A DNA stretch of 64,000 bases from Acidobacteriota bacterium (lineage in GTDB: Bacteria > Acidobacteriota > Thermoanaerobaculia > Gp7-AA8), in the NCBI GenBank assembly GCA_019244185.1, contig JAFATB010000025.1, forward strand, positions 288,001-352,000, written 5' to 3'. The notes beneath the pieces are model-generated. The model was not told the DNA's origin. It did no database searches and saw nothing but the letters and a program-made list of their open reading frames with translations. Both the position numbers and the translations under genes were made by a program. Of the stretch, positions 53,728-62,127 are shown one piece after another (position 1 is the first letter of the stretch; each line of letters begins with the position of its first letter).

Positions 53728-55674
53728 ATGCAGCAGTTTCGTTACGACATCCGCAACGTCGCCATCATCGCGCACGTCGACCACGGCAAGACCACGCTCG
53801 TCGACGCGCTGCTCAAACAAGCCGGCGCCATCCGCGCGAATCAGCAGGTCGATGAACGGGTCATGGACTCGAACGACCTCGAGAAAGAGCGCGGCATCAC
53901 GATCCTGGCGAAGAACACGTCCATCCGTTACTTCGTCGATCAGCCCGACGCCCTCGGCCATCCCGTCCATCACGAGGCCACGCACACCGCGTCGGGCCAT
54001 GACCTCCCCGCGCAGTTCATTCATCCATCCGAGGTGAAGATCAACATCGTCGACACCCCGGGCCACGCCGACTTCGGCGGCGAGGTCGAGCGCGTGCTGT
54101 CGATGGTCGACGGCGTGATCCTGCTGGTCGACGCCGCGGAAGGTCCGATGCCGCAGACGCGCTTCGTCCTGCGCAAGGCTCTCGGTCTGGGCCTCCTGCC
54201 GATCGTCATCATCAACAAGATCGACCGCGCCGACGCGCGTGCGACCGAAGTCGTCAACGAAGTCTTCGATCTCATGATCGAGCTCGGCGCGTCCGACGAA
54301 CAGCTCGACTTCCCGATCCTCTACGCCATCGGCCGCAAAGGCATCGTGCGCACCGAGCTCGAGGACTCGAACGAAGACTGCCGTCCGCTCTTCGACGCGA
54401 TCCTCAAGCGCATTCCGCCGCCGCCGGGCAACGCCGACGCGCCGATGCAGCTCCTCGTCAGCGCCATCGACTACAACGAGTACGTCGGCCGTCTCGGCAT
54501 CGGACGCGTGCAGCGCGGCAAGATCCGCCAGGGCTCCGACGTCGTGCTCATCCTCCGCGACGGGACGCAGAAAAAAGGACGCGTCACGAAGCTGACGGTG
54601 TTCGAAGGACTGCGACGCTCGGAAGTCGAGGAAGCGGCCGCGGGCGAGATCGTCGCCGTCGCGGGCTTCACGGACGTCGAGATCGGCGAAACGTTCGCGG
54701 CCGCCGACGCGCCGGAACGCCTCGAGCCGATCGCCATCGACGAGCCGACCGTCTCGATGTTCTGGATGGTCAACGACTCGCCGTTCGCCGGCACCGAAGG
54801 CAAGTACGTCACCTCGCGCAACATCAAAGACCGCCTCGAGCGCGAGCTGCGCAAGGACGTCGCGCTGCGCGTGCGCGAGACCGGACAAGCGGATCGCTTC
54901 GAAGTCGCGGGACGCGGCGAGCTGCATCTCTCGATCCTCGCCGAAAACATGCGTCGCGAAGGCTACGAGTTCGCGCTGTCGCGCCCGCAGGTCATCCTCA
55001 AAAACATCGACGGGCAGACCATGGAGCCGTACGAGGCGCTCGTGGTGGACGTCGAGGAAGCGCACGTCGGCACGATCATGGAGAAGCTGCAGCAGCGCCG
55101 CGCCGAGATGACCGACATGGTCAACCCCGGCACGGGACGCGTGCGCATCGAGTTCAAGATCCCGACGCGCGGCCTCTTCGGCATCCGCACGGAGTTCCTC
55201 TCCGAGACGCGCGGCACCGGACTGCTGTACCACACGTTCCTCGAATACGGCCCGTATCGCGGCGAGCTCACGAGCCGCAACCGCGGCGCGCTCGTGGCGA
55301 AGGAAGCGGGCGACACGACCGCGTACGCCATCGAGCCGCTGCAGGAGCGCTCGACGCTCTTCCTCGGACCGGGAGTCAAGGTCTACGGCGGGCAAATCGT
55401 CGGCGAGAACTCGCGCGACGTCGACATGGTCGTGCAGGTCTGCCGCGCGAAGCACCTCACGAACATGCGCGCGTCCGGCTCCGACATCGCCGTCAAGCTC
55501 ACGCCGCCGCGCAACCTCACGCTCGAGCAATGCCTCGAATGGATCGAGGACGACGAGCTCGTCGAGGTGACGCCGGAGTCGATCCGCATCCGTAAGTCGA
55601 TCCTCGATCACTCGCGTCGCGAGGTCGAGGCGAAGAAGGCGAAGAAAGCGGCGGCAGCGGAGGCGGAAGGGTAA
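53728..55674 (+). CDS. typA: Translational GTPase TypA/BipA
   Basis: [73 protein letters not shown]. Confidence 0.97.
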
Positions 55675-55678
55675 GCGG

Positions 55679-56768
55679 TCAGATCGCGTCGGGATCGAAC
55701 TTCCGCTTGGTCCCCTGCTTTTCCTGCTTTTCCTTTTTCGCCTTTTCGGTGGCCAGCGTCGCTAGCTTCCGGCCGCCCTCCATCGCGGGCGCGTAAATCG
55801 GCTTGGTCACGAACAACTCTTTGAACGTGACGTCCTTCTTCTCCGTCGCCGCGAACGAGCGTGACCGTTTTCGCCTTCGCAATCGTGCCCGGCACATCGG
55901 TGGCTTTGTCGTCGTCGGAGTCCCAGTCGAGGAAGTTGTAGCTGGGCTCCGACGGGAGCGCGACCTTCTTCAGATCGGCGGGGAATGGGATGCGCGTCTT
56001 CTGCGTCTGCGTCTTCTTCGCGCCGCGACGGTGCCATGCATTCCAGAGTCCGCGCCGGTGAATTTCACCGTTGGCTTTATTCGCGATGTACGCCTTGACG
56101 GTTGCCGTGGTCACCTTGAACTTCAGGTTGTTCCTGAGCACGTACTGCTCCGCATGCAACATGAGCGGCTGAATGGCCACTGCATTCACCTCGCGCGCGA
56201 AGCGTTCCGCCTCCGCCTCGAGGAGCGCGCTGAAGACGACCGCGGTGCCGTCGCCGAATGGGTTCGCGACGCGGCCCGCACGCTGCTGCACGACGTGCGT
56301 CAGCTCGTGTGCGAGGAGCTGCCGTCCGCGCGGCGAATGCGGATCGTACTGGCCGGGCGCGAAGTGGATGTTCGAACCATGCGTGAAGGCGGTGGCGCCG
56401 AGGGTCTGGGCGGCGGTGCCGGTGTGCACGCGCACGTCGGCGAAGCTCGCGCCGAGCGCGTCTTCCATCCGCTGCCGCACGTCCGCGGGCAGCGGCTGGC
56501 CGGGCATCGGCGCAAAGCTCGCGAGCGCCGGCGGGAGCAGCAGAGCGGAACCGTGCGGCGTCGCGCGGAGCTGCAGCGCGGCGGCGGCTCCCGCGGCGGC
56601 GACGTGCGGCGCCTGCCGCGGCATGCGCGGCTGCGCGACCTGCGCGATGCGCTGCCGCACCCAGTCCGGATCCGCGCCGTGCGCGGCCGCGGCCGCCGCT
56701 CGCTGCAACGTCAGCTGCAACTGCGTCACGCCCGAAGGAAACGAATCCTGAATGACGGATCCGCGCAT
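55679..56768 (-). pseudogene. DUF4157 (eCIS core domain) protein with variable C-terminus, apparent frameshift near 55857
   Basis: GQPLPADVRQRMEDALGASFADVRVH…AFTHGSNIHF…LLAHELTHVVQQ. Coding-like frame switches after …KTVTL to FAATEKKDVTFKELFVTKPIYAP…FDPDAI*. RBS GAGGGGG. Confidence 0.72.
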
Positions 56769-62091: not shown

Positions 62092-62093
62092 CG
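62054..62093 (+). repeat. 40-bp perfect direct repeat, copy 2 (encodes the AAA C-terminus and stop)
   Basis: Identical to 59207-59246. Confidence 0.9.
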
Positions 62094-62127
62094 CCGCTCA
62101 CGCAACCTTTGGCCGTGCGGCCCGAAT

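Follow-up and report, generated by a model that had tools for sequence, protein, structure and literature searches.

The 64,000-nucleotide (nt) stretch analysed here in full (the window; contig JAFATB010000025.1 of assembly GCA_019244185.1), part of the high-GC genome of an uncultured, soil-type acidobacterium of the Thermoanaerobaculia, carries downstream of typA an array of accessory genes inside which short pieces of both conserved borders of the locus recur, the 3' end of typA on one side and a 40-nt motif, M, on the other. Our analysis indicates that the window holds two stacked fillings of one variable locus, because a related genome has the corresponding empty site, M can be identified as part of the native upstream region of a conserved small gene, the interval between the same borders varies among relatives, and no recombinase was found in the window or downstream of typA in relatives. 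We consider it reasonably likely that this stacking of alleles arose at a plastic locus through homology and microhomology recombination that copied a border each time, with no dedicated enzyme.

Along the forward strand the features follow one another as typA, a DUF4157 gene, a decayed part-copy of M (M'), the gene IPT1, a second decayed copy (M''), IPT2, an exact internal copy of M, a remnant of the typA 3' end, an AAA+ ATPase gene, the native M, the small gene and a metallophosphoesterase gene. Repeat, domain and 40-mer searches found the repeats, the typA 3' pseudo-copy and the four cargo genes where the first-pass annotation had described them, and like it found no integrase. The left border, typA/bipA (53728-55674, forward strand), is intact, encodes 648 amino acids (aa) with GTP_EFTU, EFG_C and BipA_C domains, and contains at its live 3' end the duplicated segment (55567-55684, forward strand), which starts with GTGACGCCG and runs about 10 nt beyond the stop codon. 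No breakpoint is visible in this typA, whose identity to that of the related locus L002 is 88% inside the duplicated part and 89% upstream of it. The remnant (59241-59342, forward strand) is 84% identical to the live end where 59245-59317 aligns with 55574-55646, or 81% over 84 gapped columns, and matches a typA-end profile with an E-value (E) of 1.9e-10. It lacks one Pro and has an altered Arg and an altered Lys; all 73 of 73 typA sequences compared keep these residues unchanged. A foreign donor was rejected for the remnant, which is 81% identical to the window's own typA end and at most 77% to that of any of 73 relatives, and we read it as a decayed local copy.

The copies of M, all on the forward strand, differ in their state of preservation. 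The 40-mer is exact at 59207-59246 and 62054-62093 (40 of 40 bases), with no other match at three or fewer mismatches in the 64 kb and no match in 100 shuffles; the internal copy breaks off at GTGACG, halfway through the native palindrome described below. M' (56797-56822), an old duplicate of the M 3' half that shares 22 of 26 bases with 62068-62093 and adjoins the IPT1 hairpin, is the sole further ungapped match at up to six mismatches in the 64 kb, a threshold at which 29 of 30 shuffles gave no match and one gave a single match. M'' (57996-58053), which ends in CGTGCGG, takes in 18-25 nt of native right flank along with M; 23 nt of it align with M at 87% identity. Both decayed copies are about 85% identical to M. 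The block running from a typA 3' end through cargo to M occurs twice in tandem, joined within a short microhomology, and both cargo blocks stop at the left edge of M (59207 and 62054), the DNA further left being unrelated; the arrangement therefore resembles alternative fillings of one locus and supports the earlier proposal that alternative cargo alleles were stacked here.

Identification of M came from a comparison set of 80 Thermoanaerobaculia/Acidobacteriota loci whose typA is 85-94% identical at the aa level, none of them from the window's own genome and all of them compared between species, not strains. An alignment of the window with 11 loci defined a conserved block of fixed spacing that consists of the M 3' half, a palindrome GCGTGAC-N4-CTCACGC, a CCGAATAT box and a start codon. 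A profile built from this region upstream of the small gene, from the M 3' half to the start codon, gave one match in each of the 12 relatives that carry the small gene and none in the other 68. Extra matches were confined to the window, at 59214-59246 and 57998-58053, the latter covering model positions 7-63 at E 0.035. The native M (62054-62093) and the remaining conserved 5' region of the small gene together occupy 62054-62139 on the forward strand (profile E 1e-22) and hold the palindrome as GCGTGAC-GCCG-CTCACGC (62086-62103) along with the CCGAATAT box. The small gene itself (62128-62373, forward strand; about 77-81 aa (80 aa), conserved start ATG 62140) forms the right conserved border with M; it is present in 12 of the 80 loci by tblastn at 64-82% identity, and no Pfam, NCBIfam or PADLOC family was assigned to it. 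In locus L066 the M-type block and the small gene (15505-15803) are inverted as a unit relative to typA and the phosphoesterase. Because the profile occurs once in every carrier of the gene and nowhere else among relatives, and because block and gene were inverted together, M is best understood as the native conserved 5' region of a small core gene and not as a cassette-end site, and the first-pass description of M as a dedicated cassette-closing site is not supported. No match to the sigma-70-type promoter consensus was found in 55400-62500; by its conservation and position, M is a putative promoter or operator region. An RNA-element reading was rejected, as Rfam gave no match at E<=1 in 53000-64000 and the window is without tRNA or tmRNA.

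The same comparison set establishes the locus as variable. In L002, whose typA is 94% identical to that of the window at the aa level, an M homolog lies about 7-12 nt after the typA stop and is followed by the window's right flank, the small gene (81% aa identity) and the phosphoesterase; L002 is an empty site. A right anchor, meaning the small gene, the metallophosphoesterase or both no more than 10 kb beyond typA, is kept in 29 of the 80 loci, and in 22 of the 40 that have the full 10 kb of downstream sequence; the metallophosphoesterase lies downstream of typA in 26 of the 80. The interval from typA to the anchor measures 21-7631 nt in these 29 loci, five of which, L002 included, have 21-183 nt, while the other 24 hold other contents. 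These are unrelated to one another and include tyrosinase with DUF218, PPK2, a TonB-dependent receptor, EAL regulators, toxin-antitoxin genes, STAND/TIR genes and a Ser/Thr kinase with PD40 repeats. None of the 80 loci has an AAA or a DUF4157 homolog in this position, and two have distant IPT homologs (35-39%). The stretch between typA and M is a plastic interval with conserved borders, in agreement with the earlier claim of one variable locus; the predicted empty site and different cargos are likewise found in relatives, whereas the predicted M-bounded units are not.

Further features of these relatives were recorded alongside. The PD40 kinase, whose repeats are of the beta-propeller type (870-903 aa), adjoins the small gene in L007, L017, L020, L066, L069 and L070, lies also at the contig ends of L008 and L039, and is missing from the window; L017 and L020 carry an IPT/TIG gene beside it. 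Conflict-type and natural-product genes come directly after typA in L003 (11994-20760), L040 (12029-20472), L074, L026 and L078, and include a lasso-peptide-like set (PqqD, transglutaminase-like and Asn-synthase-like), nSTAND1, TIR, Uma2, PDDEXK_3, PIN/DUF6290 and BrnT.

Examination of the joints showed that they fall in a few bases present in both parental sequences, and that the words concerned, GTGACG(CCG) and CGTGCGG, are not special. The 9-mer GTGACGCCG is found in both parents, at 55567 and 62088 as the first-pass annotation had pointed out, and has five occurrences in the window against 3.2 expected. At the joint itself (59241-59252) GTGACG is followed by GAGTCG of typA; the GTGACG at 59241-59246 is common to the end of M and to typA, and CCG is absent relative to both parents. 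The claim that this junction lies within the microhomology is thus correct for the shared GTGACG and fails for the full 9-mer, of which six bases survive. The joint of the IPT tandem duplication lies in a different word, CGTGCGG, which the native flank (62114) shares with the start of a hairpin (58047) and which is ordinary in its frequency (44 occurrences, 44.8 expected); this duplication took along M and 18-25 nt of native flank. Given the count of the 9-mer, the different IPT joint and a typA-end repeat of 208 nt, not 108 nt, in the related locus L053, the proposed crossover core GTGACG(CCG) finds no support. M' abutting the IPT1 hairpin marks a third border-copying event. At the outer edges of the array, both edge genes take their stop codons from flank sequence (55679-55684; 62052-62091).

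Direct observation covers the layout of the array, the empty site, what M is, how the interval varies, the lack of a detectable recombinase and the microhomologies at the joints; from these we infer a route of recombination and an order of events. The region from the typA stop to M would be a plasticity region in the Thermoanaerobaculia, in which accessory genes differ by lineage and no recombinase is present, and in this lineage two alternative fillings would have been stacked head to tail. The older block would consist of the typA end, the dead DUF4157 gene, the tandem IPT/TIG pair and M, and the other of the typA-end remnant, the rare AAA+ ATPase gene and M. In each event one end would have been anchored by border homology, either in typA or in M together with the small gene and the metallophosphoesterase, and the other joined illegitimately at a handful of bases: GTGACG(CCG) where the end of M meets typA, and CGTGCGG where the flank meets the IPT hairpin. 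Since each event would copy a border, M and the typA 3' end would come to recur inside the array. Candidate routes are unequal crossing-over, one-sided homology-facilitated illegitimate recombination of incoming DNA, and single-crossover insertion of a circularised allele. The decay of M', M'' and the DUF4157 gene suggests that the left part is oldest and that the AAA block, or at least its M, was the last to arrive.

Several observations weigh against this account. The joints at 56822/56823 and 59246/59247 both sit, to within 1 nt, at the centre of the M palindrome; joint positions differ for the IPT duplication and for L053, yet these two coincide. This is the pattern expected from a site-specific enzyme, and with two joints it may also reflect chance or a fragile palindrome. 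There is also a mismatch in age across a single joint, in that the internal M is identical at all 40 bases whereas the typA remnant attached to it has diverged by 16-19%, and for this reason one old event is insufficient to explain both. The account needs gene conversion, selection or a second step as well; in the two-step version the decayed remnant and the AAA gene would have arrived recently through recombination in M and the right flank. The interval between LOG and typA, upstream, varies as well, with 14 loci below 500 nt and 16 at 0.9-7.3 kb, and the variability downstream of typA may reflect general fluidity at this phylogenetic distance and not a special hotspot. Because the upstream interval also varies and the comparisons are between species, the term hotspot holds only in a weak sense. 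In addition, an insert flanked by typA-end repeats is what an integrase classically leaves behind, and this scar recurs in L053. Finally, the sequence basis for the window genome is 64 kb of assembly only.

The integrase scar leads to a different history, which we regard as unlikely, in which decayed integrase-borne islands targeted the typA 3' end and the integrase was lost or acted from elsewhere, as in a cis-mobilizable element (CIME) or a satellite. Elements that target the 3' end of a gene bring a replacement gene end, leave the old end behind as a direct repeat and accumulate in tandem; in the window, too, the direct repeat is the 3' end of the target gene, typA has been kept intact, and two joints lie at one palindrome position. 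L053 (2004-4772) provides a cleaner case, with a typA 3'-end duplication of 208 nt that is 97% identical, ends exactly at the stop codon and flanks a 2.36-kb insert holding a DUF3592 gene; a third typA-tail fragment of 39 nt (2421-2459, 87%) is possible there. Dehalococcoides is described as having integrase-free islands in tandem with integrase-bearing ones at ssrA, an integration module being present in 16 of 31 islands (PMC3146451). Set against these parallels, the DNA to the left of the remnant in the window is a copy of the chromosome's right flank, M, and not element DNA. No integrase, transposase or recombinase family was detected among the 43 called genes of the window, nor among 311 open reading frames (ORFs) downstream of typA in the 80 relatives (222 called by codon-position GC and 89 from gaps with no GC filter; E limits of 1e-5, 1e-8 and 1e-6), and none of 34 frames in the L053 insert matched a recombinase family. 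Left repeat boundaries also differ, lying 108 nt before the stop in the window and 208-230 nt before it in L053, and of 81 sequences searched with a profile, just two, the window and L053, had significant additional copies of the typA end. The duplication in L053 is independent of that in the window; no right-flank duplication was found in L053, where the sole match was a 14-nt chance hit, and the loci include no close relative of L053 in which its empty state would be visible. L053 further contains arrays of GGGGTTC-type heptamers (1-250 and about 10101-10302), and a palindromic element of about 100 nt that resembles a miniature inverted-repeat transposable element or a repetitive extragenic palindrome is repeated in L053 (4809-4913, 4991-5095) and at four places in L054.

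Much less probable still is the idea, raised in the first-pass annotation, of an integrase-free cassette-accretion site at which M or its palindrome would be a recombination site, GTGACG the crossover core, and the recombinase supplied in trans. Four copies of M each stand to the right of one of four successive units, the internal M is perfect, and two joints sit within 1 nt at the palindrome centre, all of which speak for such a site. In relatives, however, M occurs once per locus and always with the small gene (12 of 12 carriers), and M-bounded units are absent. The M regions are unstructured as folded DNA (z-scores 0.41 and 0.17), neither the palindrome (41 matches in the window at up to three mismatches, 36 expected) nor the 9-mer is enriched, M'' came from a plain tandem duplication with its joint elsewhere, and the genes lie on both strands with their own hairpins; no recombinase that might act in trans was seen among the window genes or the relatives' downstream ORFs. 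A related version, for which we hold out similarly little expectation, has a host enzyme acting in trans on the M-end palindrome GCGTGAC-GCCG-CTCACGC and excising whole fillings between GTGACG repeats and re-inserting them, by which integrase-free arrays would be built; the coincident joints, the perfect internal M and the recurrent typA-end duplications would, with equally slight probability, be its traces. If a host enzyme did use M as its site, this would constitute a new route of gene capture, though the evidence to date does not favour it.

Two established kinds of site-specific system were also compared with the array. Integron cassette arrays are alike in presenting a row of unrelated genes that are each followed by a similar short motif, and differ in that the window has no IntI, a motif that does not fold like attC and is the upstream region of a core gene, and genes on both strands with their own hairpins; with no recombinase family among the window genes and only the IPT hairpins structured, the integron reading was rejected. 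A dif-like site is 28 bp long, with two arms of about 11 bp around a 6-bp centre, and is repeated at the ends of integrative mobile elements exploiting Xer (IMEX). The Xer/dif reading was rejected because the arms of the M palindrome are 7 bp long and its centre 4 bp, and because the internal copies lack the right arm.

An assembly artefact, in which contigs of two co-occurring strains with different fillings were merged through the 40-bp M, is the explanation to which we give the least weight. In its favour, the relatives are all metagenome-assembled genomes and an exact 40-bp repeat is present. Against it, a chimeric join would yield near-identical typA ends, whereas the remnant is decayed, bears indels and is found nowhere else, so that its joint with M must exist in real DNA; IPT1, IPT2 and the AAA protein are each recorded on three contigs, the longest of 2.36 Mb; and the decayed M' and M'' are not explicable by misassembly. 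Fifteen of the 80 related contigs break in the 3' part of typA or less than 500 nt beyond it, which could favour an artefact, and about eight of 80, counted by eye from a table, end within 400 nt before typA or in its 5' part; on this comparison, contig breaks were set aside as an unconvincing sign of strain heterogeneity.

The cargo genes themselves differ in condition and apparent origin. The DUF4157/eCIS_core gene (ORF 55608-56846, reverse strand; PF13699, E 5e-30; likely start ATG 56768) is degraded by an internal deletion of about 170 codons and a frameshift near 55830-55900. Its original C-terminal frame occupies 55679-55897, with the stop at 55679-55681 inside GCGGTCAG, 4 nt past the typA stop. 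The peptide of this other frame matches the C-terminus of homolog P0019 (E 4e-8), GC content at third codon positions (GC3) favours the frame, and the homologs P0016, P0018 and P0019 retain the stretch that was lost in the window, all of which mark the gene as a pseudogene. IPT1 (56858-57913, reverse strand; PF01833, E 2.8e-15) encodes a secreted-looking IPT/TIG protein of 351 aa, and its paralog IPT2 (58082-59134, reverse strand) is 83% identical to it at the aa level; both proteins are intact with a hydrophobic N-terminus. The two genes lie within a 1224-bp tandem unit whose copies are 91% identical, and each is followed by a hairpin of the same sequence, at 56821-56850 (13-bp stem, 5-nt loop, terminator-like; DNA fold z-score -4.67) and at 58044-58074 (z-score -4.29). 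The family is frequent in the Thermoanaerobaculia (449 matches), where tandem IPT pairs seem to occur elsewhere too.

The AAA+ ATPase gene (59392-62091, forward strand; 899 aa; PF00004, E 2.7e-19) is intact and has a ribosome-binding site, and its last 13 codons and stop lie inside M: homologs stop about 13 aa sooner, and the window ORF continues into M and uses a TGA there. The family is rare, with nine full-length homologs at 50-53% identity. A structural model (pLDDT 65.9, pTM 0.69) predicts an all-helical N-terminal part of about 540 aa joined to a classic-clade AAA module, and its PDB matches (fidgetin-like, spastin, FtsH, p97) are restricted to that module; the N-terminal part matched no family and no PDB fold. 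PADLOC gave weak IetA-like matches to the AAA module only and NCBIfam matches were all far under their cut-offs, so that a defence-system reading of the cargo was rejected. GC content drops to 0.59-0.64 between 57.5 and 62 kb, the IPT-AAA part, and to 0.62 at the left edge, compared with 0.65-0.70 in the flanks; the DUF4157 body (56.25-57.0 kb) has 0.72-0.75, and the AAA gene has a GC3 of 0.71 compared with about 0.88 for core genes; by composition, the low GC and the AAA GC3 mark probable foreign cargo. A plasmid or phage origin was rejected, as a 6.4-kb query returned two short plasmid matches to the DUF4157 domain and no phage match. To the right of the array, the YaeI-like, membrane-anchored metallophosphoesterase is a core gene (62383-63531, forward strand; PF00149, E 3.9e-10) whose match to NF008460 (E 2.9e-20) is under the curated cut-off of that model.

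Tandem duplication is common in this stretch, as seen in the IPT unit and in RHS genes. The latter form a tandem pair of RHS-repeat genes (1910 and 1915 aa; 24769-40481) with a unit of about 5.9 kb that is 75-92% identical; the pair adjoins a 1365-aa PKD-domain protein and constitutes another large tandem duplication in the same 64 kb. A 64-nt tandem repeat at 51316-51532 (3.4 copies, 86% matches), rich in ATGCGATCGCGCATCGCAT-type palindromes, overlaps the start of an ORF at 51396-52034.

Variable loci of this general form are familiar; E. coli, for instance, reportedly has integration hotspots between conserved core genes. Genomic plasticity regions resemble the window locus in their conserved flanks, empty sites, unrelated accessory genes, frequent lack of mobility genes and a lower GC content in much of the cargo. 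The window differs from them in its host, an uncultured member of the Thermoanaerobaculia, and in retaining inside its array copies of both borders, which record how the fillings were joined. Homology-facilitated illegitimate recombination, classically described in naturally transformable bacteria, is alike in having one homology-anchored end, the other at 3-9 bp of microhomology, and no element-encoded enzyme, and is unlike in that the outcome in the window is a net duplication of the borders (stacking) and not replacement. Tandem accretion at gene 3' ends is known for integrative and conjugative elements, integrative mobilizable elements and CIMEs; repeated target 3' ends between blocks, an intact target and blocks without an integrase are common to both, whereas at the typA locus no integrase was found in 81 genomes, the unit adds a copy of the right flank, and the repeat boundaries are not fixed. 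With regard to typA itself, one report has it flanking regions of genomic plasticity in three of four Photorhabdus and Xenorhabdus genomes (PMC3091717), and islands built by tycheposons at tRNA genes are described in another (10.1101/2020.12.28.424599). A limited search of the literature on typA with genomic islands or integration sites, which is not proof of absence, found no comparable typA-end duplications.

In summary, our work provides a clean, decay-dated record of how a variable locus has grown in an uncultured acidobacterial lineage. The mode of growth to which this record points is one in which whole alternative fillings would be added side by side and the borders copied each time, with no mobile-element enzyme found. 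It also carries a caution for the interpretation of such arrays more generally, in that short motifs which recur where cargo genes end can have been copied from a conserved flank on the promoter side and need not be recombination sites.

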